Below are positions 2,736 to 48,350 of a stretch of 62,313 bases of DNA, in pieces; positions within the stretch are counted from its first letter, which is position 1, and each line of letters starts with the position of its first letter. The translations under genes and the position numbers were made by a program. The DNA lies in the NCBI GenBank assembly GCA_018896765.1, contig JAHILZ010000061.1:1-62313 (forward strand). The letters run 5' to 3'. Origin of the DNA: Patescibacteria group bacterium. Its GTDB lineage: Bacteria > Patescibacteriota > Minisyncoccia > JAHIHE01. Under the pieces are notes generated by a model, which searched no databases, had not been told where the DNA came from, and saw only the letters and a list, made by a program, of their open reading frames with translations.

Positions 2736-4163
2736 CTAATTCATTTTCGCTAACTGTTTAAAACTCTTTGGCTTGTATTTATCCCATTCTTCCTGCTTCA
2801 CATATAGCATTTTATATTCAATTTTTTTCTGTCGTTCGCTTGCATCTTCGCACCACTGCGCCAATCTTTTTATCTTTTCAATATCACCCAGATCCTCCCG
2901 TCCCTTTGTTTCCACAATATAAATAGTTTTATTGTCCGTCTTTACGAAAAAGTCGGGATAGTAACTGGAAATAGCCCCGCTTGCATTTTTATAATCAATC
3001 TTGAAATGAATTTCAAAATAATTTTTTGCGAAAGAAATCACATCGTCAGCGCCTTCTAAAAAGTCGGCAAATTCAAGTTCAAAATCACTATCGCCGACAA
3101 TTTTATTGAATACGCTTTTTTTAGGCAGTAAATATTTTTTATCAGTAACGACAAACAGCCTGGCGCAGCTTACTTTAAGATAATTTTTTATTTCCGTATC
3201 ACCGACATCTTGCACAGTCAGATTATTTATTTCCTTTTTAAATGTTTCCACAATAGTTTTTACTGCTTCCAATTCGGATAAATTTCTCAAAATATTTGCG
3301 TCATTAAGATCAACCCTTTTGCTAAATAAATCATCAGTGATAAATTCTTTTACTTTGCCAAAAAGTATGTCATAGCACCCGAAGAGACGCGGTTCTTTCA
3401 TTATTCTTTGCGCAAAAAATCCAACGACGCTTTGATAATTTGGTTCAACCGCGCTATTTAAAATTGTTGTATGGTGGATTTTATCATCAATCACTTCCTT
3501 AAAAACAATTTCTTTTTTTCTTCCTCGGAGAATTGCTTTACTAAAATCCTTTCATGTTTGAAATCGGCGATATTCAACAAATTAAGGTTCTTGTATTCTC
3601 TTTGAATCCTCGGGGTTAAAACCGGCAATTCAATATCTAAATTTTCAATATCTTTTTTTGCATTATGATTATCAATTTCAATAACGGTCGGCGTAATCGG
3701 CGAGCCGGAACGATCCATTTTTCGTTTTTCCGCTTCCGGTTGCCATTTTTATCACAAAGCGAAGCCAGTCTTCATCAAACATATTCGGCGAAACTCTGCC
3801 AAGTTTATCAAATGGAATTAAATCAAATTTATTTCTCGCTCCCTGAACATCGTAAATCCAAATAATCGTTTCTACCGCTTCTCTTTGCGCGAAATAGTAT
3901 TGGAAGGCGACACTCATCCCGTCTTTGGTAAAAATCGTGTGCGGTTCTTTAAACCACCAATTCAAAAGAGCTTTTGAAGTTTCGTTGGCACCCTCATAAT
4001 TATCCGCCCGCCACTTGGCTACTTTTTCCCGCAATTCCGGCACAAAAGGAGGCAAAAGTTTTTCATAGCCTTCCTTGCGCAAATCTTCCTCAGCAGGAAA
4101 CCACCTGATTGACGGATCAAGAATTTGAAATTTGTCTTTTGGAAAGTTTTTATGCAGTGCCAT
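2736..4163 (-). pseudogene. Disrupted Type III restriction enzyme Res subunit (helicase core missing)
   Basis: Three consecutive fragments in different frames. The N-terminal piece ends just after Walker A (ATGSGKTK). A 75-aa middle piece follows. The C-terminal piece carries the PD-(D/E)xK-like YYPDFFVKTD...IVETKG. Together they total about 500 aa versus about 900 expected; one frame break is near an A8 run at about 3511. Confidence 0.6.
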
Positions 4164-4204
4164 AAATATTTTGCTTAATTTAGTTATCCACACTTACTAT
4201 TGAC
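4121..4204. repeat. Direct repeat copy A (res 5' end and upstream)
   Basis: About 83 bp, nearly identical by eye to 5095-5177. It covers the first 14 codons (MALHKNFPKDKFQI) plus upstream sequence. Confidence 0.75.
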
Positions 4205-4341
4205 GAGAAACAGTCTTTGATATATCATTGCTATAGAAGTATGTAATAATAACTTATAAAATGCTGTGGTATTCCTCCGAAGAATTCGGAACAAAAGCTA
4301 CAAATAAACCATTATATAAGACACTACTTCTAACAAAATCC

Positions 4342-5037
4342 TCAATCGTTTGATTGAGATTTTTGTTTTGGGTATTTTTCATCCCAAATATCTTTGAATA
4401 ATTCCTTACCCGAACCTAAAAGATTATTTTTTAATATTTGATAACATTCGTTACCCAGTTCTTTTTTCTCTAGATATCTTGCCAGCGCTCCAACAATCCA
4501 ATCAGCGATTTGAATATTAACATTCTGCTCTGAATCAATCATTTCAATCTGCACAATAGACTTGCTAGACATTTGTGGCAATAATCTTGCTTTTAATATC
4601 TCTTTAAATTCTGATCTTTTAATTCCTTTTAAGTGTCTTTTGTCGCAAAAAACCCTAAATTCTAAATCATTTATCGGCAAATACATCTCCAATGCTTCTC
4701 CTATAATATTAGTGTATAAATGACCACTTTGTAATTTATCTTTTTTGTAATAATTTTGTGGAATATTTTTTCTCAAAAGATATGCAAAATAAATACGCAC
4801 ATCCAAATCAGCAATAAATTTCAAAGTTTTTAGCCGAAGGTTATCATCAATTTTTATTTCCGAAAATTTAATTTCTGGTTGATAGCGAAGCTTGCGAGGG
4901 AATTTAGTTCTTTGCCATGACCGAAATTGTTTTTCTGTTCTCCTGGAATCTCCAATAATAAAAGAAGCAGCGACAAAATATTTCTCGTTATTATGTTTTG
5001 TAAACTGACCGCTTTCATCAAGAAATATATGAGCCAT
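4342..5037 (-). CDS. DUF3800-family protein
   Basis: 231 aa. N-terminal IFLDESG and C-terminal IQIADWIVGA motifs are typical of DUF3800. Confidence 0.6.
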   Translation of the reverse strand: MAHIFLDESGQFTKHNNEKYFVAASFIIGDSRRTEKQFRSWQRTKFPRKLRYQPEIKFSEIKIDDNLRLKTLKFIADLDVRIYFAYLLRKNIPQNYYKKDKLQSGHLYTNIIGEALEMYLPINDLEFRVFCDKRHLKGIKRSEFKEILKARLLPQMSSKSIVQIEMIDSEQNVNIQIADWIVGALARYLEKKELGNECYQILKNNLLGSGKELFKDIWDEKYPKQKSQSND

Positions 5038-5094
5038 AAAATTATTTTTTACATGAACTTGTTCCAGATCTTTTTTTTATTACACAAGGCCAAA

Positions 5095-5177
5095 TTATTT
5101 GAAATTTATCTTTTGGAAAATTTTTGTGTAATGCCATAAAATTTGCTTAATTTAGTTATCCACACTCAACCTATTGA
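5095..5177. repeat. Direct repeat copy B (duplicated res 5' end)
   Basis: Encodes MALHKNFPKDKFQI and then diverges to a stop (MALHKNFPKDKFQIIWPCVIKKRSGTSSCKK). Together with copy A it flanks the DUF3800 gene. Confidence 0.75.
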
Positions 5178-5270
5178 TTTTTTAATATTTATATGCTATA
5201 TTTTATTTAATCACGCTCAGTGGATTAATCCATTGAGATACACATAAGTCCGAGGATTATATCCTTGGAT

Positions 5271-5840
5271 TTATTTTTTTATGGAATTTTCTAAATTATC
5301 AACGGAACAAGCGTAAAAAAGACTATTTCCTATACTATTATATTCTTTTCCTTTGTGCCCCTCGGCAAAAACTAAAATAACTTTTTTGCCTTTTTTAATT
5401 AAGTCTTCGGTCAAAGCAAAATAATCACCATCACCGCTAAACAGTAATAAAGTGTCATAACTATCAATCATATTTAACGCATCTCGTGTTATTTCTACGT
5501 CAAAGTCACATTTCCTTCTGTAAGCTGGTTTTTTAAGACTATCTTGGAGGTTACCTATGTCAATATTAAGATTTTTTAAATCACCGTCTAACCCCTCAAT
5601 TAATTCAAAAATTTCTTTTAATTCCTCTTCGCTAATATTTTCCTCTTCCAGATTCTGCAACTTTTTTATTTTTCTAGTTAAAACATATAATTTATTAGAA
5701 AGTTCAGAATTGGTATTTTTAACATTATCCAGAACATCAAATAATTTTTTTACAACTTCCTTAAAATGATTTTGTTGATTTAATAATACTGGTGTCCACT
5801 TTACTTCTTTTGAGATTACGCTAAAACCTACTTTTTCCAT
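5271..5840 (-). CDS. NYN/LabA-like domain protein with coiled-coil N-terminal half
   Basis: 189 aa. The C-terminal DVEITRDALNMIDSYDTLLLFSGDGDYFALTEDLIKKGKKVILV resembles the NYN (PIN-like) fold. The N-terminal half is Lys/Glu/Leu-rich. Confidence 0.5.
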   Translation of the reverse strand: MEKVGFSVISKEVKWTPVLLNQQNHFKEVVKKLFDVLDNVKNTNSELSNKLYVLTRKIKKLQNLEEENISEEELKEIFELIEGLDGDLKNLNIDIGNLQDSLKKPAYRRKCDFDVEITRDALNMIDSYDTLLLFSGDGDYFALTEDLIKKGKKVILVFAEGHKGKEYNSIGNSLFYACSVDNLENSIKK

Positions 5841-20002: not shown

Positions 20003-20030
20003 TTGACAAAACTATTGCTTATAGTATAAT
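20003..20030 (+). promoter_or_regulatory. Sigma-70-type promoter for the Cys-rich mini-ORF
   Basis: TTGACA (20003-20008), 16-nt spacer, TATAAT (20025-20030). The ATG is 13 nt after the -10 element, which implies a leaderless or very short-leader mRNA. Confidence 0.5.
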
Positions 20031-20042
20031 GAGGTTAATCAT

Positions 20043-20141
20043 ATGACAACTATTAATCAAACAAAATTAATTGCCAATACTGCCTGCGCTTGTTGCTGCG
20101 CCGCTATTAAGTCCGGGCAAGTTTTTGTTTTGAGAAAATAA
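20043..20141 (+). CDS. 32-codon Cys-rich mini-ORF (candidate leader peptide or small peptide)
   Basis: MTTINQTKLIANTACACCCAAIKSGQVFVLRK. Four Cys codons lie in 20085-20099. It is flanked by a consensus promoter and a terminator-like hairpin, and is below the ORF-track cutoff. Confidence 0.45.
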   Translation: MTTINQTKLIANTACACCCAAIKSGQVFVLRK

Positions 20142-20168
20142 GTTTTAGATCATATTATTTTTATCAGA

Positions 20169-20197
20169 CTGCCCGGCAAAAGGCGGTTTTTTGTTTT
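20169..20197 (+). terminator. Terminator-like hairpin between mini-ORF and tRNA-Cys
   Basis: CTGCC (20169-73) pairs with GGCGG (20182-86), including one G-U pair, around an 8-nt loop, followed by TTTTTTGTTTT. The 5' arm can alternatively pair with 20113-20119. Confidence 0.45.
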
Positions 20198-20208
20198 ATC
20201 ATTATTAT

Positions 20209-20279
20209 GACGAGGTAGCAAAGAGGCAATGCGGGAGACAGCAGATCTCCTTACGCGGGTTCAAATCCTGCCCTCGTCT
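20209..20279 (+). tRNA. tRNA-Cys (anticodon GCA) with non-canonical anticodon loop
   Basis: Acceptor GACGAGG/CCTCGTC. Discriminator U73. A13:A22 mismatch. Anticodon arm GGAGA-CAGCAGA-TCTCC. T-loop TTCAAAT. The loop contains no U, so position 33 is A and position 37 is G. Confidence 0.75.
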
Positions 20280-20321: not shown

Positions 20322-21188
20322 ATGAACGAAAGAGAAATATCAAATAAGGTAATGGGGGTTTTAACTTCCCGAAAGTATGGATTTCACCAAAGGGGAAACG
20401 GGAAAAACGCGCCAAAAAGAAACACACGGGAGTATGAATTTTTCCTCAGGTGTATCGAGGAAAAATTAAGAAAACAAAAACCTGTAGAATTTTTTATTAA
20501 CTTTACAGGCCTTAAAAATTATAATGCCTGCAAATACTACAATCCCGATGAGTCTGAAAAACGCGCTTTCAGTTTTTTGCTAAACATGGCAAAACAAATC
20601 GAAAAAATATATCCTCAAGGCGTCGTTATAAATATAATATCAAACGACGCTCGGGCAATGTTTGCCAACGGCGCAAAAGAAGAAAACTGTAGAATATATT
20701 ACACCGGACTCGAAAAAATGATTAAGGAAAACGAAAGTTTTTCCAAACATTTCAGGCTTTTCCACCTAAAAGATATCTGGCAAAAAGAAGGCGAAGATTT
20801 TTTTTCGCTTCTTAGCCAAACTGTCGCAGAGGTTGAAAAAAACATAGAAAACGATCCGGATTTTCAGGAACTACTTCTCCGAGCAAAAAGAAGCGCAAAA
20901 CCAAACACCCCTGACCATGAACTCAAGCAGGCTGTTGTAAAATTTAAAGCCACTCTTGCAACCGAAAAAGAGCTAAGAATATGGGACAAACATTTTCCAC
21001 ACGCAATTATGCTTAGCTATAGGATAAATCCTGCCTGGGGTCTGCCATTCCTTTTGCCGTGGGCAACAGGCGAAGGCGAAGTTACTCAGCCTTGGCACGG
21101 CTGGTATGACAAAAATACCAACAAGGTAATGACCGTATGGAGGCAAGAAAAGCAAAAAGAGCTACAAAAATGGATGTTTAGGATATAA
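20322..21188 (+). CDS. PvcA/Dit1-family (isonitrile-synthase-like) protein, divergent
   Basis: 288 aa. KPVEFFINF...PDESEKRAFSFLL....IEKIYPQGVVINIISND...YYTGLEKMIKE and C-terminal FPHAIMLSYRINP...TQPWHG parallel my recollection of PvcA (EPIHFILPAFP...PD..E..A..L...Y.PGA...I.SDG; FP.AVRLSIHPQ...TPWHG). A strong AGGAGG lies 6 nt upstream. Confidence 0.5.
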   Translation: MNEREISNKVMGVLTSRKYGFHQRGNGKNAPKRNTREYEFFLRCIEEKLRKQKPVEFFINFTGLKNYNACKYYNPDESEKRAFSFLLNMAKQIEKIYPQGVVINIISNDARAMFANGAKEENCRIYYTGLEKMIKENESFSKHFRLFHLKDIWQKEGEDFFSLLSQTVAEVEKNIENDPDFQELLLRAKRSAKPNTPDHELKQAVVKFKATLATEKELRIWDKHFPHAIMLSYRINPAWGLPFLLPWATGEGEVTQPWHGWYDKNTNKVMTVWRQEKQKELQKWMFRI

Positions 21189-21294
21189 ACCAAAGGCCAG
21201 AATCAAGTTTCGATAAAATTTTCGATTAACGATTCTGGCTAATTTTTTAATCATTTATTTGACTAATTATTTTAATCATTTAACATATAAACAT

Positions 21295-22278
21295 ATGACA
21301 TCACGAGAACGAATCTATAAAACAATGAAAGGAAAACCTACCGATCGAATCCCCGTCTCACTATGGCAACATTTTCCAGATGCAGATCAAACCAGTCAAG
21401 GATTGGCCGATTCTATATTAAACTTTCAAAAAAAGTTTAATTTTGATTTGGTAAAAGTAACACCTGCCAGCGGATATATGACAGAAGCTTTTGGCGGAAA
21501 ATTTATACCACTTAAAACCGGCCTGCAAAAAGGAATCAGGGAATGCGTTGATTTTCCGATCAAGAATCATAACGACTGGAAAAAAATCAAACCAGCCAGT
21601 ATTAACCAAGGGATTTTAAAGCGCGAACTGGAAGCCTTAAAGCTTATTAAAAAAGGTATCGGCAACGATGTACCAATAGTACAAACAATCCCTAACCCTT
21701 TAACTCTTGCGAAAACCATTCGGGGAAAATTATTATTTGATGACCTTAGGAATCATCCTAACGATTTAAAATCAGCCCTTGATGTTATTACGGATACTAT
21801 ACTTACATTTTCCTTAGAATCTTTAAAAGTCAGAGCCGATGGCATATTCTTTTTTACCCAGATGGCAAGTTTTGATTTTCTAACGGAAAAAGAATATCAA
21901 GAATTCGGAGTAAAATACGATTTGCAAATATTAAATAATCTAGCAAAACAAAATGCATTGCTTATACTGCATATCCATGGCTTGAATATTATGTTCGATC
22001 TCCTTAAAGAATATCCCGTACAGATCATAAATTGGCACGACCAATTGACCGCGCCAACGATCGCCGAAGCGCAAAAAATCTGTACAAAAACTTTTATAGG
22101 TGGAATAGAAGAAAATGAAATGTTGTTAAAAGAAAATCCTGAAGTTATCAAAAAACATATAAAAAAATTTATTAACAAAAACAATGGCAAACGATTAATA
22201 TTCGGTCCTGGCTGTGTTTTACCTGTTAATACTCCGGAAATGAATATAAGCGCCATAAAAAAAGCTTTAGAAAAATAA
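21295..22278 (+). CDS. Uroporphyrinogen decarboxylase (URO-D) family protein (MtaA/CmuA-like)
   Basis: About 327 aa from the ATG at 21295. MTSRERIYKTMKGKPTDRIPVSLWQHF... has URO-D family N-terminal and overall architecture. The track start at 21259 is a TTG. Confidence 0.65.
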   Translation: MTSRERIYKTMKGKPTDRIPVSLWQHFPDADQTSQGLADSILNFQKKFNFDLVKVTPASGYMTEAFGGKFIPLKTGLQKGIRECVDFPIKNHNDWKKIKPASINQGILKRELEALKLIKKGIGNDVPIVQTIPNPLTLAKTIRGKLLFDDLRNHPNDLKSALDVITDTILTFSLESLKVRADGIFFFTQMASFDFLTEKEYQEFGVKYDLQILNNLAKQNALLILHIHGLNIMFDLLKEYPVQIINWHDQLTAPTIAEAQKICTKTFIGGIEENEMLLKENPEVIKKHIKKFINKNNGKRLIFGPGCVLPVNTPEMNISAIKKALEK

Positions 22279-22358: not shown

Positions 22359-22387
22359 TTGACGGCATCCGCAACTTGCGGTATAAT
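22359..22387 (+). promoter_or_regulatory. Sigma-70-type promoter upstream of the 22420 ORF
   Basis: TTGACG, 17-nt spacer, TATAAT; located 33 nt upstream of the ATG. Confidence 0.45.
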
Positions 22388-37915: not shown

Positions 37916-37966
37916 AGAATGAATTTTTTAGATAAAAACATCTATCGGGACCGTCTGGTGAACCTT

Positions 37967-38047
37967 TTAAAAACCCTACAAACTACCAACTACAACCTAC
38001 CGACTATTAAAAACCCTACAAACTACCAACTACAACCTACCGACTAT
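37967..38047. repeat. Perfect 2 x 40-bp tandem repeat built from CTACNNN heptads
   Basis: TTAAAAACCCTACAAACTACCAACTACAACCTACCGACTA occurs twice with a 40-bp period. The top strand is almost free of G. It lies between divergent ftsK and pyrI. Confidence 0.9.
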
Positions 38048-38087
38048 CTTATTATTATACTACTTTTAAAGAAAAAATCAAAGAAAT

Positions 38088-38115
38088 TTGACAAATTTTA
38101 TCGTAGAGGTAGAAT
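38088..38115 (+). promoter_or_regulatory. Sigma-70-type promoter for pyrI
   Basis: TTGACA, 16-nt spacer, TAGAAT. GGAGG lies 5 nt before the ATG at 38147. Confidence 0.5.
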
Positions 38116-38146
38116 ACGGTTAGCACATTTTAATATGGAGGGATTT

Positions 38147-38650
38147 ATGCAAGCAGAAGAAACAACGGAAAAAAAGGAAGAAGGGAAAATATCAAAAATT
38201 GAAAACGGAACAGTAATTGATCATATTTCTTCGGGATACGCGCTAAAAGTTCTTGAAATTCTGGGCATCCTGTCCAGCACTAGCGCAAAGGTAAGTTTTG
38301 TAATGAATATTTCAAGCCTAAAAGCGAAAAATGGGAAAAAAGACATAGTGAAATTCGAAGGCAGAGAGCTTACAAAGCGTGAAACTGACAAAATTACGGT
38401 AGTTTCTCCCGGCGCCACGATAAACATAATTAGAAATTATGAAATAGCTAAAAAATATCACGTAGAACTGCCGAACAAAATAATTGATATCATCAAATGC
38501 CCCAATCCCAATTGCGCCACGAACAACTTAAAAGAAATGGGGAGTATTAAAACGATATTTAAAGTAATGGGCAAAGCGCCAATTATTTTTGAGTGTCATT
38601 ACTGCGGAGCCCAGATAGACAATGATATAATCAATCATGTAAAATGCTAA
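38147..38650 (+). CDS. pyrI: Aspartate carbamoyltransferase regulatory chain PyrI
   Basis: About 167 aa. I.NGTVIDHI, KD.VK.E...L, and zinc domain CPNPNC...C.YCG align with my recollection of E. coli PyrI. The track ORF's 76-codon N-terminal extension reads through the tandem repeat. Confidence 0.8.
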   Translation: MQAEETTEKKEEGKISKIENGTVIDHISSGYALKVLEILGILSSTSAKVSFVMNISSLKAKNGKKDIVKFEGRELTKRETDKITVVSPGATINIIRNYEIAKKYHVELPNKIIDIIKCPNPNCATNNLKEMGSIKTIFKVMGKAPIIFECHYCGAQIDNDIINHVKC

Positions 38651-39412: not shown

Positions 39413-40063
39413 TTATTGCTTTAATTTATTCAAATTTTCAACAAGCAAATAAACCGTGGTTGAAGGATTCTTTTTTAAATACGATTTTTCACACTCATGC
39501 ATTTTTATCAAATACTTGGCATTTTTAATTGCCGTTTCTTCCAAATCTTTTATCAAAAAATGCATATTTTCTTTCTTTTTTTCATATTTTTCACTATATT
39601 TTTTTTGTAGAACATCACCTAACTTTTCTTTTATTAATTCTCTGCTAAGAGCCGAGGAAAGTAAATTGAAATGCAATAAAAACCACAGCTCAAAAGATTC
39701 ATTTGAATATGCGACACCTATGTTGCTGGCTTTTGCTTTGTTTATAGCGCTGTCAAAATCTTTATCAAAACTGTCTTTATCAAAAACGACCCAGCATTCA
39801 TCGCTATCCGCTGAGCCGTTTATTTCAATATTTTCTTTATCGATAAAATCTAAAGCATATTCTACAATGCTTAATGTATTATGTCCTGTGCCTTTAATCT
39901 CTATTTTAATATTTCTTCTTCTAATCTCTGCTTCAATTTCTAATTTTTTAGACTCAAAATAATTAACCTCTGTTTTTTCTCCCTCGGTAAAAATATAAAT
40001 TATTTTATATTCATTTCGCGTATTATACTTTCTATTAAATCGTGAATTTTGATTTCTATTCAT
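39413..40063 (-). CDS. RloB-like (Toprim-like) protein, partner of the upstream ATPase
   Basis: About 216 aa from the ATG at 40063. IIYIFTEGEKTEVNYF and CWVVFDKD...VAYSNESFELWFLLHF match RloB-family signatures. It starts 4 nt after the ATPase stop. Confidence 0.7.
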   Translation of the reverse strand: MNRNQNSRFNRKYNTRNEYKIIYIFTEGEKTEVNYFESKKLEIEAEIRRRNIKIEIKGTGHNTLSIVEYALDFIDKENIEINGSADSDECWVVFDKDSFDKDFDSAINKAKASNIGVAYSNESFELWFLLHFNLLSSALSRELIKEKLGDVLQKKYSEKYEKKKENMHFLIKDLEETAIKNAKYLIKMHECEKSYLKKNPSTTVYLLVENLNKLKQ

Positions 40064-40067
40064 ATTA

Positions 40068-41303
40068 TTATATAGATTCAATAAAAGGCAAAGCGCCAAA
40101 CCGTCCTTCAAGATATTTTTTAGAAAATTCCGTATCATTCCTTATGTCGTCGTTAATTTCAGACAAAGAAAACAAATTGCCTGAGCCATATTTATCTTTT
40201 TCTGTAAACCAAATTTGATCTTTAATAAAATCATTTTTATGTGAAATCAAACTAGTATCGTGAGTTGTGACTATCAGCTGAGCATTGTTAGGATTATTTT
40301 TTTCAAAAATATCAACAATAAATTTAGTTAAAAGCGGATGCAAACTATTATCAAATTCATCAATAAGCAAAACCTTACCATTTTCAATAGTATCAATTAT
40401 GGGACCAAGCGCATCAAAAAACTTTTGTGTTCCTACTGACTCATCACCCATATTAAACCTTTCAAGTCCTATTTTATTATTTTTTGAGTCAAATTTGCTA
40501 TGTGAAAAAAATACAATATCCATTGTTTCAAAACCATCTTTTTTATCAGGAAATACCGTTTGTTTTTCAATAGGTTTAGGAATTATTGTTTCTTTAACTT
40601 CTACGGTTTCAATAGAAAAATCAGCCTTTTGTAAAAAAGTTATTATTTTTTCTCTTGCCTCCATATTTTCTTTAACTAATTTTACAGTATATCCTCTATA
40701 AGCGCCATTTCCTCCCCCGCTAATAATATTGATATTTTCAAAACCATCCACTATCTTTATAGCAAGAGGATTATTCCATTGTGCGGCTGCTGATAAAAAT
40801 AATACTTCTTTCCTTGTTTTGGTTTTTATATCTTCACTTTCTGTAAAATCATTAAACACCTTAATAGAATGTTCGTTTCTGATTAAATATTGTTTTTCTT
40901 TTCCATTAGATAAAATTTCAAATAAATTTTCTGCTACTATTTTTTCTTTGAGAATTGAGAGACTGTATTTAAAAATTTGTTCATCAATGGAAAAAATAAC
41001 TTCAAAAAAAGAAGGTTGCCCGCTTTTATCTGACAATACAAATGGAATATATGGTAAGTCGGCATTTTCAGGGTTATTTGCTGAATAAATTATTCCGGTT
41101 TTTAAGATTATAAAAGCGCTTAACAACGTACTTTTGCCGGAAGCATTTGGTCCATATATTAAGGATGTTTTTAATAAATTTTCGCCATTACTATCAAAAG
41201 CATGTTCACCTTTTCTGGTAAGCATAGAAAAAGTCGCCTTATTTTTAAAGATTTTAAAATTTTCTACCGAAAACTCAATTAATGAAACTTTCATATTTTG
41301 CAT
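40068..41303 (-). CDS. AAA_21/ABC-type ATPase (AbiL/OLD-like defence ATPase)
   Basis: 411 aa. Walker A LIYGPNASGKSTLL, Walker B LLIDEFDNSLHP and TTHD. Confidence 0.75.
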   Translation of the reverse strand: MQNMKVSLIEFSVENFKIFKNKATFSMLTRKGEHAFDSNGENLLKTSLIYGPNASGKSTLLSAFIILKTGIIYSANNPENADLPYIPFVLSDKSGQPSFFEVIFSIDEQIFKYSLSILKEKIVAENLFEILSNGKEKQYLIRNEHSIKVFNDFTESEDIKTKTRKEVLFLSAAAQWNNPLAIKIVDGFENINIISGGGNGAYRGYTVKLVKENMEAREKIITFLQKADFSIETVEVKETIIPKPIEKQTVFPDKKDGFETMDIVFFSHSKFDSKNNKIGLERFNMGDESVGTQKFFDALGPIIDTIENGKVLLIDEFDNSLHPLLTKFIVDIFEKNNPNNAQLIVTTHDTSLISHKNDFIKDQIWFTEKDKYGSGNLFSLSEINDDIRNDTEFSKKYLEGRFGALPFIESI

Positions 41304-41467: not shown

Positions 41468-44400
41468 TTATTTTCCGAATCCTGTTCCGGCCGGTATCAG
41501 CTTGCCGATAATGACATTTTCTTTCAGGCCTTTCAATTCGTCCGACTTGCCGAACAAGGCGGCGGAAATAAGCACGCGGGCGGTTTCTTGGAATGAAGCG
41601 GCAGCCAGAAAGCTTTCAGTGGAAAGCGATACTTTGGTAATGCCAAGCAGCAATTCTTCGCCTTTGGCCGGCTTCTTGCCTTCTTTTTTGGCTATGGCAT
41701 TTACTTTATTGTATTGAACCGCTTCCACTACGCTGCCTTCCGGCAATTCCGTATCTCCGGCATCGCTGATTATAATTCTCGAAAACATCTGCCTGACAAT
41801 CAATTCGATATGCTTGTCATTGATGCCTTCTCCTTGAGCGGTGTAAATTTCCTGCACTTCGCCGATAATGTATTCCGCCACCGCCATCTTATCAACCAAT
41901 TTAAAAAGTTCGTGGATATCAATGTGCCCTTCGGTCAATCTTTGTCCTTTTTTGACAGTCGCGCCTTTCTCGACAGAAATCGCGATATCGGAATCTACTT
42001 CGTATTCTTTTACTTCGGCCTCCGCTTTTCTTTTTTCATTAGTCACATTGACGCGGATAATTTTTTTATTGGTCAAAGCGATAACATCTATTACTTTCCC
42101 GTCCACCTCGGAAATCAAGGCTTTTCCTTTTGGAACGCGGGCCTCGAAAATTTCTTCCACGCGAGGCAAGCCCTGAGTAATATCCCGTCCGGCGACTCCT
42201 CCGCTATGGAAAGTTTTCATGGTCAGCTGAGTTCCGGGCTCGCCGATAGCTTGCGCGGTAACAATACCGATAGCTTCGCCTTTAACAATGGGCTTATTCC
42301 TGCCTAAATCATAGCCGTAGCATTTTTGGCAAATTCCCCGTTCGGCCTTGCAGTAAATAACCGTGCGAACTTTAACAGAATCGATTCCGGGAGTATTTTC
42401 AATCACCTTGGCAATATCTTTGGGAATAAATTCTCCCGACGGCGCTAAAACCTTCTTTGTTTTTGGATTAATAATATCTTCCGCGGCGACTCGGCCGTAA
42501 ATCCTCGCCGCGAAACCTCTGCCCAGTTCATATTGATCAATTCTTGGAATCGTAATAAATCGCTTGCTTCCGCAATCAATTTCGTTAATAACCATATCTT
42601 GCGCGACATCGACCAAGCGCCTGGTCAAATAACCGGCGGTGGCGGTTCTAAGAGCAATGTCGGTCATGCCTTTTCTGGCTCCGTGAGTGGAAATGAAATA
42701 TTCCAAAACATCAAAACCTTCCTTGAAACTATTTTTAATCGGCAGCTCGATCGTTTCTCCTGCCGGATTAACAACCAGCCCTTTCATTCCCATCATCTGC
42801 GCGACTACCGCCCAAGAACTTCTTGCTCCGGATTCAATCATCAAAAATACCGGACTATTTTGATCCAAAGTATTTAAAACAGCTTTAGTAACCTTATTCT
42901 TGGTATCGGTCCATGTTTCAATCACTTTGGTTCTCCGCTCTTCGCTGGTAAGGAGCCCCTCATTATATTGATGCTCGATAATTTCCGCCTGTTTTTTCGC
43001 TTCTTCTATCAAAGCGGCTTTTTCCGGCGGTATTTTCAAATCGCTCATCCCCCAGCTAAGCCCGGAGATCGTTACATATTCAAATCCCAATTTCTTAATC
43101 CTGTCGACCAAATCCACGGTTTCATCAGCGCCAGCTTTTTCCAGAGAATCAGCCACCAGCGCTTTCAAATTTTTCGCATCCATAACTTCATTCACAAACC
43201 GCAAAACTTTCGGCAACGCTTCATTAAAAATGATGCGCCCCACCGAAGTCTTGATATATTTGCCTTCATTAAGCTCTTCTTTTTTAATGACATTGATTTC
43301 AAAATCTTTGCGCAGTTTTATTTCCGCCTTAAGATCGATAATATTCAATTGATAACTCAAAATCGCTTCCTTGGCGTCATAGAAAATCTTGCCCTCGCCT
43401 TTGCCGCCGCGCACAATCTTGGTCATATAATAGCATCCTAAAATAATATCCTGATAAGGAATGACGATCGGATCTCCTGTTGCCGGCTTCAATAAATTCT
43501 TGCTTGAGAGCATTATCTCTCTGCCTTCTTTTTGCGCTTCTTCGCCCAGCGGCAAATGCACCGCCATCTGGTCTCCGTCGAAATCGGCATTGAAAGCCTT
43601 GCAAACCAAAGGATGGATTTGGATAGCTTTGCCTTCGATCAGCACCGGATAAAACGCCTGAATGCTCAAGCGATGAAGAGTCGGAGCGCGATTTAAAAGC
43701 ACTACTTTGCCATTGATAATATTTTCCAAAATATCCCAAACTTCCACGGTTTCCTGCTCAATCAATCGAGCGGCGCTCCTGACATTATAGGCATAATTCC
43801 CTTCAATTAATTTTCGCATAACGAACGGCTTGAACAATTCCAAAGCCATATTTTTCGGCAATCCGCATTGATTCAATTTCAATTCCGGCCCGACCACGAT
43901 CACGGAGCGTCCGGAATAATCCACGCGCTTGCCGAGCAAATTCTGCCTGAATCGGCCTTGCTTTCCTTTTAACATATCGGCCAAAGATCTTAATTGCCTT
44001 TTTTGCCCGGTAGAAGCGATAGTCACCTGTCCGCGCTTAATGCTATTGTCGATCAAAGCGTCAACCGCTTCCTGCAACATTCTTTTTTCGTTGCGGCAAA
44101 TAACTTCCGGGGCTTTTAATTCAATCAAATGCTTTAGGCGATTATTGCGATTGATAACTCTTCGGTATAGATCATTCAAGTCAGAAGTGGCAAAACGCCC
44201 GCCGTCCAGCTGAACCATCGGCCTGAGATCCGGCGGAATCACGGGCAAAACCGTGAAGCACATCCACTCGGGTTTTACTCCGGCCTTAATCATTCCTTGC
44301 GCCAATCTTAAGCGCTTGGTAATTTTTTTCCTTATAACATCATTCGTGACGCTTTTCAATTCTTGAGTCAAGGCATCTTTAAGTTTTTTTAAATCGGTGC

Positions 44401-45064
44401 GGACAAGCATTTCTCTCACCGTTTCCGCTCCTGTCCCGGCCTTAAATACGGAACCGAATTTCAGCGATAAATTCCGATATTCAATTTCAGAAATTACTTT
44501 CATCGGAACAATGCTTTTCATTTCCGCCTTTGCCAAATCTCTGGAAGCTTTTAGCTCGGCAATGCCATCCTTTGTTTTCTGCTCTTTGCTTCTTGTTTTA
44601 AATTCCCGATCTATTTCTTTGAAGGCCTCTTCCTTGTTTTTTTCATTTACTTCGGTAATGACATAAGCCGCGAAATAAATAATTTTTTCCAGATCCTGCA
44701 CGGAAATATCCAAAGTCAAGCCAATGCTGGAAGGCACGCCTCGGACAAACCAAATATGAGTAATAGGCACCGCCAGTTTGATATGGCCCATCCGTTCGCG
44801 CCTGACCGAGGAGCGGGTTACTTCCACTCCGCATTTGTCGCAAATGATTCCTTTGTACCTGATTCGCTTATATTTTCCGCAATAGCATTCCCAATCCTTG
44901 GTCGGGCCGAAAATACGCTCGGAAAAAAGCCCGTCCGGCTCCGGCCGCTGAGTCCGATAATTGATTGTTTCCGGCTTTACAACTTCGCCGCGCGACCAAG
45001 CTAAAATGTTTTCCGGGCTGGCTAAGGTTAATTTTACTGATTTGAAGGTTGATGTTTTGTACAT
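41468..45064 (-). CDS. rpoC: DNA-directed RNA polymerase subunit beta'
   Basis: 1198 aa. Zinc-binding CYCGKYKRIRYKGIICDKCGVEV, catalytic NADFDGD and full-length RpoC similarity. Confidence 0.97.
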   Translation of the reverse strand: MYKTSTFKSVKLTLASPENILAWSRGEVVKPETINYRTQRPEPDGLFSERIFGPTKDWECYCGKYKRIRYKGIICDKCGVEVTRSSVRRERMGHIKLAVPITHIWFVRGVPSSIGLTLDISVQDLEKIIYFAAYVITEVNEKNKEEAFKEIDREFKTRSKEQKTKDGIAELKASRDLAKAEMKSIVPMKVISEIEYRNLSLKFGSVFKAGTGAETVREMLVRTDLKKLKDALTQELKSVTNDVIRKKITKRLRLAQGMIKAGVKPEWMCFTVLPVIPPDLRPMVQLDGGRFATSDLNDLYRRVINRNNRLKHLIELKAPEVICRNEKRMLQEAVDALIDNSIKRGQVTIASTGQKRQLRSLADMLKGKQGRFRQNLLGKRVDYSGRSVIVVGPELKLNQCGLPKNMALELFKPFVMRKLIEGNYAYNVRSAARLIEQETVEVWDILENIINGKVVLLNRAPTLHRLSIQAFYPVLIEGKAIQIHPLVCKAFNADFDGDQMAVHLPLGEEAQKEGREIMLSSKNLLKPATGDPIVIPYQDIILGCYYMTKIVRGGKGEGKIFYDAKEAILSYQLNIIDLKAEIKLRKDFEINVIKKEELNEGKYIKTSVGRIIFNEALPKVLRFVNEVMDAKNLKALVADSLEKAGADETVDLVDRIKKLGFEYVTISGLSWGMSDLKIPPEKAALIEEAKKQAEIIEHQYNEGLLTSEERRTKVIETWTDTKNKVTKAVLNTLDQNSPVFLMIESGARSSWAVVAQMMGMKGLVVNPAGETIELPIKNSFKEGFDVLEYFISTHGARKGMTDIALRTATAGYLTRRLVDVAQDMVINEIDCGSKRFITIPRIDQYELGRGFAARIYGRVAAEDIINPKTKKVLAPSGEFIPKDIAKVIENTPGIDSVKVRTVIYCKAERGICQKCYGYDLGRNKPIVKGEAIGIVTAQAIGEPGTQLTMKTFHSGGVAGRDITQGLPRVEEIFEARVPKGKALISEVDGKVIDVIALTNKKIIRVNVTNEKRKAEAEVKEYEVDSDIAISVEKGATVKKGQRLTEGHIDIHELFKLVDKMAVAEYIIGEVQEIYTAQGEGINDKHIELIVRQMFSRIIISDAGDTELPEGSVVEAVQYNKVNAIAKKEGKKPAKGEELLLGITKVSLSTESFLAAASFQETARVLISAALFGKSDELKGLKENVIIGKLIPAGTGFGK

Positions 45065-45096: not shown

Positions 45097-45855
45097 TTAA
45101 TTGGTTTTTATTTTTAAATCATCAAAATTATATTCTTTTATAATTCCTGCATTAATTCCACCCGTTCCATAAATTTTTAAAATACCTTCTGAAACTGATA
45201 AGCTAGAATAATCTTTTCCAGTATCGGGCAAAGTAATAATTCTTTCATATGAATTTAAATTTGTAAAATATTTAAATTCTTTGTTTATATTTGATGGGTA
45301 GCTAATAAACAATCCTGAAATATCATATACTGATAAAAATTGTTCACTAAAGTTTCCCTTATAGCCAGATAAGGATATTAATTTATCATCTGGTAAAAAC
45401 ACGATATCAAAAATATTTGAGGTACCAAGGACATTAAGTTGAATATTCTCATTGTGTTCTAACGAATAGATTCTTAGTGCGGAGTCGAGTCCACCAGAAA
45501 TATCTTGAAAAACAACATATTTACCTGAAGGAGAAACTATGTTTAATAAAAATTGATAACATTTTGTTTCTGGAGAAAATTCAGAATATTCTGTGTTTAA
45601 AAAGATATCGCCTTTTGTTGTATTAATCTTTATTTTACAACCCTCAACAGTTGCCTCCGAAGAAATAATTTTATCGGTTGTTGGTTGTGATGTTAATTTC
45701 GGAGCTACCACCGTCACAGGTTTAACAACTCTCGGCGTTTCACGATATTTAATCACCGCTATTGTTGAAGCAATGACAACAACCGCCGCGATAATCGCCA
45801 TTCCGGCGAATGTCGAGATTTGAACTGCGCCTTTTTGAGAATTGATTTTTGACAT
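45097..45855 (-). CDS. Membrane-anchored extracellular protein (PD40/TolB-like repeats?), paralogous N-terminus
   Basis: 252 aa. The N-terminus MSKINSQKGAVQISTFAGMAIIAAVVVIASTIAVIKYRE is nearly identical to that of 46832..48187. The rest is beta-rich (SPSGKYVVF...). Confidence 0.4.
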   Translation of the reverse strand: MSKINSQKGAVQISTFAGMAIIAAVVVIASTIAVIKYRETPRVVKPVTVVAPKLTSQPTTDKIISSEATVEGCKIKINTTKGDIFLNTEYSEFSPETKCYQFLLNIVSPSGKYVVFQDISGGLDSALRIYSLEHNENIQLNVLGTSNIFDIVFLPDDKLISLSGYKGNFSEQFLSVYDISGLFISYPSNINKEFKYFTNLNSYERIITLPDTGKDYSSLSVSEGILKIYGTGGINAGIIKEYNFDDLKIKTN

Positions 45856-45900
45856 AATTTAAATTAGTTAATTAGTTTTTATTGAAATGGTTAAAATTTT

Positions 45901-46306
45901 CTGTCATTCCGATTTATCAGCAGATAAAGAGGAATCCCTTAAACCCTATTCATCGGTTAAAACTTTATATAAATCGCTCCAAGTCGGATTATCTATTTTA
46001 ATTAAATTTTGTTTCTTTTCTCTCCTCCATTTCTTGATTTCTTTTTCTCTGTTCATCGCCGAATAAACATCACTACATTGTTCATAATAAATTAATTTAT
46101 GGCAAGCGTATTTTTGAGTAAAACCTTTTATTTTTCCTTCTTTGTGTTCAGCTACCCTTCTCAATAAATCGTTAGTAAAACCGGTATAGAGTGTTCCGCT
46201 TAAACTCGCCATTATATAAACATAAAAACTATATTCTTTTTTCATGTTTTTTAATTAAACACCACGAAGGGATTTCTCGCCCCGAGTACGGGACTCGAAA
46301 TGACAG
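45901..46306 (-). mobile_element. Candidate GIY-YIG mini-element: nuclease gene bracketed by inverted GTCATT-hairpin units
   Basis: Left unit: CTGTCATTCCGATTTATCAGCAGATAAAGAGGAATCC (45901-45937). The right unit (46269-46306) reverse-complements to CTGTCATTTCGAGTCCCGTACTCGGGGCGAGAAATCCC. The right unit supplies the last about 19 codons of the neighbouring Bro-N ORF. Confidence 0.45.
45946..46245 (-). CDS. GIY-YIG nuclease family protein
   Basis: 99 aa. FYVYIMAS..GTLYTGFTNDLLRRVAEHK...REKEIKKWRREKK. Confidence 0.8.
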   Translation of the reverse strand: MKKEYSFYVYIMASLSGTLYTGFTNDLLRRVAEHKEGKIKGFTQKYACHKLIYYEQCSDVYSAMNREKEIKKWRREKKQNLIKIDNPTWSDLYKVLTDE

Positions 46307-46745
46307 AAAACATTAATTTAGTATAACCTTTTTGCAAATATGTTTTCATCGCTCTGTCAAAAGCCAACTCAGGATTTTCAGTTTCTTCTATCCTTTCATA
46401 TCCTACTTTTGCCAGCCACAATTTAAACGGCTCGGCATTGGGAGACGAAATTGATTGAATAAGACGAAATATCGTTTCAGTATCCGCCGTATCAATAATG
46501 CGCATTTTGCCATCCGGAGCAATCATTTTCAACCCGTTACATTTTGTAACGGTTTCGTTTGAACCCTCGTCAATAAGTCTTTTTTTCAATACGCGCCAAT
46601 ATACTTGCGGATTATCGCTATTTGTAAGTGCGGCGATTATATCTACAATCGCAAAATACCACAACTCTTTTTCATCATCCCAATGGCGGCGAATTTGTTT
46701 TTCCCCGAAAATCGCTATGGCTTTATTTTTCAATTGATTTTCCAT
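46251..46745 (-). CDS. Bro-N domain (phage antirepressor-like) DNA-binding protein
   Basis: 164 aa. FGEKQIRRHWDDEKELWYFAIVDIIAALT...LKMIAPDGKMRIIDTADTETIFRLIQSISSPNAEPFKLWLAKVGYERIEE is typical of Bro-N family proteins. Confidence 0.7.
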   Translation of the reverse strand: MENQLKNKAIAIFGEKQIRRHWDDEKELWYFAIVDIIAALTNSDNPQVYWRVLKKRLIDEGSNETVTKCNGLKMIAPDGKMRIIDTADTETIFRLIQSISSPNAEPFKLWLAKVGYERIEETENPELAFDRAMKTYLQKGYTKLMFSVISSPVLGARNPFVVFN

Positions 46746-46751
46746 AAAATT

Positions 46752-46803
46752 AAAAATATCTTGGTCTCAATCCGCTCATCCGACACAAGGCTGATTTTAG
46801 TTT
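46752..46803 (-). pseudogene. Remnant of an ORF6N gene 5' end
   Basis: About 50 bp matching 48832-48883 (codons 4-20 of the intact ORF6N gene: KISLVSDERIETKIF). It has no start codon and stops precede it. It lies directly upstream of the Bro-N ATG. Confidence 0.6.
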
Positions 46804-46831
46804 ATTAAATATAATAGTGAAATTGTAATTT

Positions 46832-48187
46832 TTATTTTATATAAAATTCCTCGCTATGCTTATTATCAATAATAAATTGATATTTACCCGACTCGAAATT
46901 ATTCGGAACATCAAAATCATAATAACCTTTTATTGGTGAAACCGTATTGGTGTTTTCTTCCCATACTAAATTCAATGAAACTACGGGTAATTTGTATAAT
47001 TTTATGCTCACAAAATCGTTTTTACAACCAAACGACTCCCATGTAATTTTATAACTTTTATTTTTTTCCCATTTAATATCTTTTACGGGAGAAATAATAT
47101 TTATTTCTTTATTATCCGCACATTCCGAAAAATTTAAAGATTTTGACAATAAGTCATACTCCTGAATCGCTTTATATACTTTCAGTTGTTTATTTTTATC
47201 TTTCATGGCGTCAATGATTATTTCGTCAAAACCAATATCTTGATTTATATGAAGGGCCATTTCTTTTTCTGCCCAATCTAGAAGCTCTCCGGAAAATAAA
47301 GAAAAGTTCGTCAAAATAATTTTATTATTTTTGAGGAAAATAGTTTTATAATAATAACGAGCGGCGCTTACATCAGAACCCATATATCCAATTATTCTTA
47401 TACCTTGCACATTAATTTGAGAGTTGTAAATAAGATCTACATAAAATCTGCTATCATTTCCCCACATGCGGCCGGGTTTAAATAAAGTAAAATCAGATTT
47501 AATTTCTTCCTCTAGAGTTTTATCTAATTTTTCCGCCTTACTCACTTTTTCTAATATTTGAAATTGTTTTTGTAATAACTCGGGATTGTATATGTATGGC
47601 TCGTATGGTCTGCCACCAGTAATACTGCACTCAAAGCCTCGTTTTTTAAGATCGTCCCATATTTTCATATTATCATATACAAATGATTTATCGTAGCTCA
47701 CCGTTTCAGTTTTGTATGGTTGGCAATTAAAAGAAGTAAGGGATGGAGAGCATTCAAAATATGAATCTCCGCATTCAAAAAATGGTTTGGGTTTAATATA
47801 AATAAATTCCGAATCAACCTTTGGTGTTACCGTAATAAAACCTTCAAAATTATCACTATTTTGTTTTGATATAGTAATTTCATCGTGTATTCGTTCTCCC
47901 GTTCTTCTTATTTTAGGAATTGACCATTCCGAAGGATATTTAAATTCTATATCCAATTCTTTACTTGAATATGTTTGCCAATCTGCAGTTTCATCCGAAT
48001 TTGGTGTCGGCGTAACGCTCGGCGTTAATTCTGGAGTTATCACAACAACTGGAGCGACAACATTTGATATTTCGCGATATTTAATTACCGCAATTGTTGA
48101 CGCCACGACAACAACCGCCGCGATAATTGCCATTCCAGCGAAGGCCGAGATTTGAACTGCGCCTTTTTGGAAACTATTTTTTGACAT
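46832..48187 (-). CDS. Membrane-anchored extracellular protein, paralogous N-terminus
   Basis: 451 aa. The first about 40 aa, and about 120 bp of DNA, closely match 45097..45855. The remainder is unrelated and unassigned. Confidence 0.4.
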   Translation of the reverse strand: MSKNSFQKGAVQISAFAGMAIIAAVVVVASTIAVIKYREISNVVAPVVVITPELTPSVTPTPNSDETADWQTYSSKELDIEFKYPSEWSIPKIRRTGERIHDEITISKQNSDNFEGFITVTPKVDSEFIYIKPKPFFECGDSYFECSPSLTSFNCQPYKTETVSYDKSFVYDNMKIWDDLKKRGFECSITGGRPYEPYIYNPELLQKQFQILEKVSKAEKLDKTLEEEIKSDFTLFKPGRMWGNDSRFYVDLIYNSQINVQGIRIIGYMGSDVSAARYYYKTIFLKNNKIILTNFSLFSGELLDWAEKEMALHINQDIGFDEIIIDAMKDKNKQLKVYKAIQEYDLLSKSLNFSECADNKEINIISPVKDIKWEKNKSYKITWESFGCKNDFVSIKLYKLPVVSLNLVWEENTNTVSPIKGYYDFDVPNNFESGKYQFIIDNKHSEEFYIK

Positions 48188-48233
48188 AAAATAAATTGTT
48201 TAGTTGATTATTATAAACTGCAAATATAATACT

Positions 48234-48308
48234 TTGTCATTTCGACCGTAGGGAGAAATCTGCCATTTTACTTGTTTAAGGAATTCCTCGCTTCGCTCGG
48301 AATGACAA
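48234..48308. repeat. Back-to-back inverted GTCATT-hairpin units without cargo (family C)
   Basis: TTGTCATTTCGACCGTAGGGAGAAATCT ... GGAATTCCTCGCTTCGCTCGGAATGACAA, separated by about 18 nt. Confidence 0.5.
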
Positions 48309-48350
48309 AAAAGAGCATTTCGTAATTTAAGATTTTTTATTTATGATTAT

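Follow-up and report, generated by a model that had tools for sequence, protein, structure and literature searches.

We describe a module in a 62,313-nucleotide (nt) stretch of Patescibacteria DNA (contig JAHILZ010000061.1; "the window" below means this whole stretch), in which a short open reading frame (ORF) with a run of Cys codons is followed by a tRNA-Cys, a gene for a PvcA-like protein, and a gene for a URO-D-like protein. We propose that the module is a cysteine-limitation response specific to a clade of Patescibacteria, and we put the probability of this reading at about 50%. The sequence and the folding models make it very probable that the short ORF is the leader of a classical transcription attenuator, which would be on when Cys-tRNA(Cys) is scarce. 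A sequence-only reading of this DNA had paired the two enzymes downstream of the leader and the tRNA. We found both ORFs, 20322 to 21188 and 21259/21295 to 22278, on the plus strand, and we confirmed that the pair is real and far beyond chance. The features of the module are listed in Table 1.

The leader ORF has 32 codons, and no other short ORF of the 62-kb window contains a run of Cys codons. Its ATG lies 12 nt past the -10 box of a consensus promoter at 20003 to 20030, which implies a 5' untranslated region of about 5 nt and leaves no Shine-Dalgarno (SD) sequence. In related loci the leader ATG also lies 12 to 13 nt past the -10 box. We predict that the mRNA of the leader ORF is leaderless or nearly so. 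We fetched contigs for both proteins and obtained 13 distinct Patescibacteria loci, window included, with a Cys leader 5' of the URO-D-like gene; the Cys-run short ORF is present in 13 of 13 (examples are MKTFQNQICCCCNIL, MIYQIAETCCACSSLLEKRMI, MKNISRTKSNACACCCSAIIAGQVFVLRK, and MNAKTFKQTKNKARVCCLDQCRLGDILVEKL). Between clades, the conservation of the 12 distinct leaders is limited to the Cys codons and the alternative RNA pairings.

We modeled the folding of the 12 leaders with the nucleotides under the ribosome masked, so that the outcome is a prediction. In 11 of the 12, a ribosome placed over the Cys codons left the 3' part of the leader free to pair with the 5' terminator half; in the same 11, a ribosome placed over the stop codon allowed the terminator hairpin and its U-tract to form. 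In the window, the pairing of 20112 to 20124 with 20166 to 20176 formed with the ribosome on the Cys codons and was lost with the ribosome on the stop. The sequence-only reading had named a link to cysteine among its possibilities, and the leaders at all of these loci and their folding models bear it out.

The predicted attenuator is of a known kind. As in the trp, his, and pheST attenuators, there is a run of codons for one amino acid, and the terminator and antiterminator are mutually exclusive. In mycobacteria, it has been established experimentally that polycysteine leader ORFs de-repress cysteine-metabolism operons (bioRxiv 10.1101/834739). Those leaders are likewise nearly leaderless short ORFs, but the described case is translational, whereas the module's attenuator is predicted to be transcriptional. 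The module also differs from known attenuators in its host, a Patescibacterium, and in having the cognate tRNA as the first gene under control. The literature that we searched yielded no description of this module, of such an attenuator in this phylum, or of any attenuator with the cognate tRNA as the first regulated gene. In Rfam, neither this region nor the related loci matched a known riboswitch or leader family; the only matches were to tRNA.

The sequence-only reading had also raised the idea that the two enzymes tailor the Cys-rich peptide. The short ORF would then be the precursor, or scaffold, of a ribosomally synthesized and post-translationally modified peptide (RiPP) modified by both enzymes. 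It does stand behind a strong promoter, RiPP operons often have a leaky terminator behind the precursor gene, and the leader peptides of loci L001, L014, and L019 are alike (MKTFxNQICCCCxIL). However, the leaders range from 15 to 32 amino acids, their termini are not conserved, and their C termini are unrelated between clades. The 3' half of each leader ORF is complementary to the terminator, the locus has no protease, transporter, or immunity gene, and the mycobacterial leaders provide a precedent for such ORFs as attenuators. In L016 two different Cys leaders each precede an unrelated gene. Because only the Cys codons and the alternative pairings are conserved, the short ORF is not a credible substrate peptide; we set the tailoring claim aside and regard the RiPP reading as very improbable.

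Cys leaders with terminators also stand before other genes. In L016 (208 to 1174 and 1198 to 2138) they precede a creatininase-family amidohydrolase gene and a gene for a 243-amino-acid protein, and in L019 (1063 to 2593) a gene for an SDH_alpha/L-cysteine-desulfidase-type protein. Genes for M20 amidohydrolases lie just 3' of the module in L097 and L012. The genes behind Cys leaders resemble a small "Cys-leader regulon" of these bacteria.

The sequence-only reading had suggested that all four elements might form one transcription unit. This stood for the leader, the tRNA-Cys, and the PvcA-like gene and did not stand for the URO-D-like gene. At least 12 of the 13 leader-bearing loci from the Candidate Phyla Radiation (CPR) have a hairpin with a U-tract just 5' of the URO-D-like gene. 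Because the sequences of this terminator differ between clades, its conservation is positional and not a matter of descent alone. The window terminator (21196 to 21248) has a 26-nt loop, and that of L006 has the textbook form with a 7-nt loop. Within the window loop, at 21205 to 21230, is a direct repeat, TTTCGAT-N6-TTTCGAT, which occurs also in L005 and L007 and not in L006. Eight loci of the window's clade share the promoter TTGACT-16-TAxxAT, with the URO-D ATG 8 to 9 nt past the -10 box; within the window there is a single copy of this 25-nt promoter and spacer sequence. Since the window ATG is 8 nt past the -10 box with no SD sequence, the URO-D-like mRNA is predicted to be leaderless. The promoter spacer also holds a near-palindrome, TGACTAA-N5-TTAATCA, which could be an operator. 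The conserved terminator and the separate promoter set the URO-D-like gene apart, and we rejected a single four-part operon. We predict from the sequence that the leader, the tRNA-Cys, and the PvcA-like gene make up one attenuated unit and that the URO-D-like gene is transcribed separately.

The pairing of the two enzyme genes is nevertheless recurrent: in our survey of co-location across CPR loci, a PvcA-like gene stood directly 5' of the URO-D-like gene in 12 of 13, in one of three types. The sequence-only reading had named it as a refuting outcome that the two genes should never lie together in related genomes, and the survey shows the opposite. Type C is remote (hhalign probability of 91.6% to the PvcA-like family; PIsnA at an expectation value [E] of 4e-5). 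The protein found in its place in L016 has no detectable similarity to PvcA-like proteins (hhalign probability, 0.1%) and no Pfam match. The flanks of the pair differ, with an LTD protein and LytR in L001 and RNase J and TrpRS in the window. In about 78 non-CPR loci with a URO-D-like gene, we found no PvcA-like gene, Cys leader, or tRNA within 4 kb. Judging from these sequences, the stable anchor of the pair is the URO-D-like gene, beside which the PvcA-like partner is replaceable.

Outside CPR, the URO-D-like gene recurs in a cassette with GNAT, M24 peptidase, DUF1028, in some cases PALP, aconitase-like, and SBP_bac_5/ABC transporter genes. In Anaerolineae, the cassette consists of Amidohydro_3, JAB, and the URO-D-like gene. 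The loci with these arrangements are L035, L040, L045, L056, L057, L059, L060, L064, and others, and L034, L036, L037, L048, and L080. These non-CPR cassettes are apparently an uncharacterized catabolic cluster for an amino-acid or peptide derivative.

These gene orders bear on a simpler account, adjacency without shared function. The attenuator would regulate tRNA-Cys, the PvcA-like gene would ride along, and the URO-D-like neighbor would be kept by synteny. The terminator and promoter of the URO-D-like gene itself fit this account, as do the other partners of its relatives elsewhere and the existence of tRNA-less loci. The gene order, however, survives changed flanks, the exchange of PvcA-like types A, B, and C, a transposon-like insertion described below, and tRNA loss, and the Cys leader persists in loci without the tRNA element (L016 and L099). 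We consider this account unlikely.

The sequence-only reading had assigned the 288-amino-acid protein to the PvcA/Dit1 family, and we found that this assignment holds. The ORF is preceded by a strong SD sequence, AAGGAGG, 6 nt upstream. The protein matched Pfam DIT1_PvcA (PF05141) above threshold, with 40 bits versus a gathering score of 26.4 (E, 4.3e-10); this single-sequence match spans only positions 3 to 135 of the 273 in the model, the N-terminal half. In a search of the PDB, it matched PIsnA (9dh4, 9dhm) and PvcA (3e59), and the matches included the C-terminal FP-AI-LS...PWHG stretch. With a 12-sequence profile, residues 14 to 276 aligned with PIsnA residues 17 to 297, nearly end to end, and E values for PIsnA and PvcA were 5e-15 to 9e-15. 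All 12 members of the PvcA-like family pass PF05141. The AlphaFold model had a mean predicted local distance difference test score (pLDDT) of 88 and a predicted template modeling (pTM) score of 0.88. Foldseek matched it to PIsnA and PvcA with TM scores of 0.64 to 0.71 (probability, 1.0; E, 5e-13 to 1e-9), and the next matches were cyclodipeptide synthases (CDPSs; E, 3e-5) and class Ic aminoacyl-tRNA synthetases (aaRSs; TyrRS/TrpRS, E of about 3e-4). NCBI labels the exact protein [quoted passage not shown]

The motifs that the sequence-only reading had quoted are present as IYPQG...IISND, FPHAIMLS, and TQPWHG. The protein shares K65, D76, E79, Y97-P-x-G100, Y126, FP-x-AI-x-LS, and (T/Q)PWHG with PvcA/IsnA. 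Of the positions with at least 75% conservation among 85 distant relatives, it keeps all ten (start Met excluded), although NDARAxFAN stands in place of the SDG(H/R)VFxD motif of PvcA/PIsnA; its near-universal residues include P257 and W258 beside K65, D76, E79, Y97, G100, and Y126. Because all near-universal family residues are retained, it is probably an active enzyme. It is nonetheless only about 20% identical to PvcA/IsnA and falls far short of the L-tyrosine isonitrile synthase equivalog NF045653 (32.3 bits versus a cutoff of 600). We concluded that it is a very divergent member of the PvcA/IsnA superfamily, outside the characterized isonitrile synthase equivalog. We rejected its high isoelectric point (pI) as a hint of RNA binding; the value is uninformative because the whole proteome is basic (pI of about 9.3). 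Close relatives of the 288-amino-acid protein make up five clusters among 5.8 billion sequences, and a word-index homologue search found only 5 to 6 of them. Type A is rare, since an exhaustive search found just four clusters below 1e-30. An initial pattern search of GTDB genomes for PvcA-like peptides gave no matches. A distant PvcA-like protein, P0012, has an archaeal context and adjoins an amino-acid kinase without a URO-D-like gene, and it was uninformative.

Membership in PF05141, the common fold, and the retained family-invariant residues would also suit a natural-product cluster, in which an isonitrile or N-formyl amino acid (metal-binding or antibiotic) is made and the URO-D-like protein serves as a tailoring methyltransferase or decarboxylase. 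Yet neither a PvcB-type dioxygenase, a cytochrome P450, nor a corrinoid protein was found among the ORFs of 17 to 26 kb and the other scanned ORFs of the window, and a PvcB/IsnB dioxygenase or P450 Dit2 partner was not found in related loci either; here the sequence-only reading, which had noted the absence of the usual dioxygenase and P450 partners, was right. Nor was there a transporter or other tailoring gene nearby among the scanned ORFs. Attenuation at Cys codons and a shared transcript with tRNA-Cys, in a genome as reduced as that of CPR bacteria, set the gene apart from pvcA/isnA and are features of primary metabolism. The score against NF045653 is low, and the URO-D-like gene is predicted to be transcribed separately. 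We consider a natural-product cluster improbable; an isonitrile product, a role in heme, and RiPP tailoring are all unlikely.

The URO-D-like protein matched URO-D (PF01208) with 112.4 bits versus 23.9 (E, 3e-32). Its start is almost certainly the ATG at 21295, giving 327 amino acids, because more than 100 homologues are about 327 amino acids long and cover 96% of the 339-amino-acid query; these lengths led us to reject the TTG at 21259. The sequence-only reading had left the choice between a decarboxylase and an MtaA-type fold, and the predicted model (pLDDT, 94) favored the latter. Its best structural match was MtaA of Methanosarcina mazei (4ay7; TM score, 0.86), followed by uroporphyrinogen decarboxylase (UROD; about 0.8) and MetE (about 0.6), and the triosephosphate isomerase (TIM) barrel fold is shared with MtaA and UROD structures at TM scores of 0.79 to 0.86. 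The zinc motif of MtaA, LHICG...APGCG, aligns with LHIHG...GPGCV. All 26 homologues compared share His226, His228, and Cys307 (327-amino-acid numbering), and W24-x-H26-F-P and N246-W-H-D249 are invariant among them too. The MtaA zinc ligands His-x-Cys...Cys thus read His-x-His...Cys, with His248 and Asp249 as extra candidate ligands, and a metal site at His226-x-His228...Cys307 is plausible from the alignments.

Despite this likeness, in which two of the three zinc-ligand positions of MtaA/MtbA are kept and the remaining one changes from Cys to His, the protein is about 20% identical to these methylcobamide:coenzyme M methyltransferases, which carry out Zn-dependent thiol alkylation, and has the extra invariant motifs W(R/Q)HFP and NWHD. 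Scores were far below the curated cutoffs for the methyltransferase 2 (MT2) proteins MtaA, MtbA, and CmuA (NF004889, 106.9 versus 244; TIGR01463, 68.9 versus 235.4; MtaA, 76.2 versus 400). No corrinoid protein or methyltransferase 1 (MT1) partner was found in the scanned window ORFs or in related loci, and we rejected corrinoid-dependent methyl transfer. HemE and heme biosynthesis were rejected as well. The protein shares the Pfam family and the barrel with HemE, but it reached only 34.3 bits against TIGR01464 (cutoff, 302.95) and is closest to MtaA. Profile alignments to UROD chains begin only at about residue 80, with the N-terminal third not alignable, and no heme genes were found near the pair among the scanned window ORFs, as expected in the sequence-only reading. 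The URO-D-like protein thus belongs to the superfamily but is neither HemE nor MtaA. Its relatives number in the hundreds, with at least 546 matches among GTDB species representatives.

The tRNA-Cys of the window was called as a cloverleaf by ARAGORN and matched Rfam RF00005 with 53.3 bits (cutoff, 29). It is canonical in U8, A14, G18G19, the T-loop, and U73, with the exception of A33 (window position 20241). Position 33, normally an invariant U (U-turn), is A, A, C, C, G, G, and U across seven GCA-bearing copies, and the stem-loop GGAGA-CNGCAGA-TCTCC is otherwise identical in five of the seven. The slot is filled differently in other loci (Table 1). ARAGORN misses the tRNA-like copies of L005, L006, and L012, and the L012 copy, the only one searched of the four with an altered T arm, gave no Rfam tRNA match at the gathering score. 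The four-way junction of L010, L096, and L097 has 24 pairs with 0 broken, 1 compensatory change, and 6 one-sided changes in three sequences, and it gave no Rfam match. In L010 (about 4745 to 4975) and L097 (about 3790 to 4010), an insertion resembling a miniature inverted-repeat transposable element (MITE) lies between the Cys attenuator and the cloverleaf RNA; it has inverted ends TAACCCCTCTCTAATTTTGC and GCAAAATTAGGGATGGGGT and a GC-rich core, and the window lacks it. A tRNA or tRNA-like element lies directly 5' of the PvcA-like gene in 11 of the 12 loci that have one, and this holds even in L019, where another gene separates the element from the leader. The slot may hold a true tRNA-Cys that is controlled homeostatically and has degenerated in part of the lineages, it may be an element for RNase P/Z processing or stability, or it may be the RNA partner of an aaRS-like enzyme.

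The last of these leads to a tRNA-dependent rival. The PvcA-fold enzyme would act on the co-transcribed tRNA-Cys(-like) RNA, charging it with a precursor or using or modifying Cys-tRNA, and the Zn enzyme would then make a C-S bond, as a functional analogue of SepRS/SepCysS or in a CDPS/PEARL-like manner. The strictly kept anticodon stem-loop, save for position 33, together with the remodeled T arm suggests protein recognition rather than ribosomal decoding. The constancy of the element 5' of the PvcA-like gene, the Foldseek matches to CDPSs and class Ic aaRSs after PIsnA and PvcA, and induction by Cys-tRNA shortage, which fits an alternative Cys-tRNA route, also speak for it. However, the aaRS/CDPS likeness is weak (TM scores of 0.3 to 0.4) and probably generic to the PvcA family, known members of which use free amino acids. 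On reading the PvcA-like sequence, we recognized no HIGH/KMSKS-type ATP motif. The cloverleaf of L010, L096, and L097 has no anticodon loop, L099 has no RNA element, and the URO-D-like family is common without any tRNA. The likeness to SepRS/SepCysS and CDPS is by analogy only, in that an aaRS-like fold stands beside a dedicated tRNA-Cys and is induced at Cys-tRNA shortage; SepRS (class II) and SepCysS (pyridoxal phosphate [PLP] dependent) have no sequence homology to the module proteins. We consider tRNA dependence unlikely, and its most specific form, a PLP-independent tRNA-linked route to cysteine or Cys-tRNA on a non-decoding tRNA-Cys(-like) RNA with the Zn enzyme, quite improbable.

According to the cysteine-limitation model, the consensus promoter would drive the nearly leaderless leader ORF. 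When Cys-tRNA(Cys) is plentiful, the ribosome would reach the stop codon, the terminator at 20166 to 20197 would form, and transcription would stop. When it is scarce, the ribosome would stall on the Cys codons and 20112 to 20124 would pair with the 5' half of the terminator. RNA polymerase would then continue into the tRNA-Cys and PvcA-like genes and end at 21196 to 21248. The URO-D-like gene immediately 3' would be expressed from its own promoter as a leaderless mRNA. The PvcA-like enzyme may derivatize the α-amino group of an amino acid with a keto-sugar phosphate to give an isonitrile or N-formyl-type product, and the MtaA/MetE-type barrel may use Zn to activate a thiol or sulfide so that a C-S bond is made or broken. 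Because the unit would be induced by a lack of charged tRNA-Cys, we propose that both enzymes serve to provide cysteine, either newly made or salvaged, possibly via an N-formyl-cysteine or thiazoline-type intermediate. The extra tRNA-Cys would aid the capture of scarce cysteine. From the sequence, a role in cysteine or thiol supply has somewhat less than an even chance. One speculative, though chemically coherent, route would run from a serine-type amino acid through an isonitrile, a Zn-delivered thioformamide or thiazoline, and N-formyl-cysteine to cysteine, with the last hydrolysis by the creatininase-type and M20 amidohydrolases seen in relatives. We regard this serine-isonitrile route, or any other specific chemistry, as improbable at best.

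Several observations weigh against a cysteine-limitation response. Because the URO-D-like gene lies outside the attenuated transcript, its adjacency is what ties it to cysteine. The URO-D-like proteins are 83 to 84% identical beside PvcA-like types that are only 20 to 24% identical, and a fixed two-step pathway would not usually swap partners in this way. Outside CPR, the URO-D-like family is common and lies in hydrolase/transporter cassettes from which no substrate is identifiable. In the PvcA-like protein, the SDG(H/R)VFxD motif of PvcA/PIsnA is replaced by NDARAxFAN. The non-U33 residues and degenerate tRNA-like elements are not explained by merely making more tRNA-Cys. Finally, all the sequences that we used, from the window and its relatives alike, are metagenome derived.

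Table 1. Features of the module in the window and the forms of its parts in related loci
Feature	Location	Strand	Basis or remark
σ70-type promoter TTGACA-16-TATAAT, 12/12 match	20003..20030	+	Drives the predicted attenuated unit
Leader ORF MTTINQTKLIANTACACCCAAIKSGQVFVLRK*, four Cys codons (20085-20087, 20091-20099)	20043..20141	+	Putative sensor of Cys-tRNA(Cys) supply
Predicted antiterminator 5' strand, within 3' part of leader ORF	20112..20124	+	Constrained folding; pairs with 20166-20176
Predicted attenuator intrinsic terminator, AGACTGCC-loop-GGCGGTTT, then T-tract	20166..20197	+	Folding
tRNA-Cys, anticodon GCA, discriminator U73, CCA not encoded	20209..20279	+	ARAGORN, Rfam, alignment with related copies
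Divergent PvcA/IsnA-fold protein, 288 amino acids, type A	20322..21188	+	Pfam, profile, predicted structure
Intrinsic terminator, stem GCCAGAATC/GATTCTGGC, then TAATTTTTT, -20.7 kcal/mol	21196..21248	+	Closes the leader-tRNA-PvcA-like unit
Promoter of the URO-D-like gene, TTGACT-16-TAACAT	21259..21286	+	ATG 8 nt past the -10 box
URO-D-superfamily TIM-barrel protein, 327 amino acids, MtaA-like, putative Zn site	21295..22278	+	Pfam, predicted structure, alignments
PvcA-like type A directly 5' of URO-D-like gene	Window, L001, L005, L006, L007, L014		
PvcA-like type B directly 5' of URO-D-like gene	L010, L012, L096, L097		About 24% identical to type A
PvcA-like type C directly 5' of URO-D-like gene	L019, L099		367 to 371 amino acids
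Unrelated 243-amino-acid protein directly 5' of URO-D-like gene	L016		
Canonical-looking tRNA-Cys 5' of PvcA-like gene	Window, L001, L014		
tRNA-like element	L005, L006, L007, L012		T arm replaced by 6-bp stem and tetraloop (CAAG or CGAG)
70-nt four-way junction without anticodon loop	L010 ~4985-5055; L096 ~1735-1805; L097 ~4030-4100		Before type B PvcA-like gene
55-nt tRNA	L019		Anticodon arm deleted
Slot without any RNA element	L016, L099		

The gene 3' of the URO-D-like gene has its own promoter at 22359 to 22387. The remainder of the window holds Patescibacteria housekeeping genes (those for GroEL, UvrA, RNase J, TrpRS, RecA, FtsK, RpoB/RpoC, and RuvA). The genes rpoB (48929 to 52150) and rpoC (41468 to 45064) are about 3.8 kb apart, and the gap (45097 to 48893) holds four ORFs that include Bro-N and ORF6N (KilAC-type) domain proteins; it looks like a mobile or phage-derived insertion within the rpoBC operon. 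Just 3' of rpoC, at 39413 to 41303, overlapping RloB-like and AAA_21 ATPase genes resemble an OLD/Abi-type defense pair. A low-GC cluster at 2736 to 5840, with genes for a TnsA-like endonuclease, a DUF3800 protein, and a NYN-domain protein, is possibly a mobile or defense island. A PyrI-like ORF (aspartate carbamoyltransferase regulatory chain) lies at 37919 to 38650 without an adjacent PyrB.

The prevailing view is that CPR/Patescibacteria lack most pathways of amino-acid biosynthesis and depend on hosts. The module is a concrete and testable handle on how they cope with scarce cysteine. It combines a predicted Cys-sensing attenuator with two orphan enzyme subfamilies that it controls or adjoins, and it points to an undescribed cysteine-shortage response rather than to pigment, heme, or peptide-antibiotic synthesis. 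The non-U33 and remodeled tRNA-Cys copies form an unusual natural series on the roles of non-decoding tRNA-shaped RNA; were a tRNA-linked route true, it would be a third solution beside CysRS and SepRS/SepCysS. A cysteine-limitation response would give a large unannotated branch of the URO-D/MtaA superfamily its first physiological context, and it would put the isonitrile synthase fold in primary, not secondary, metabolism.

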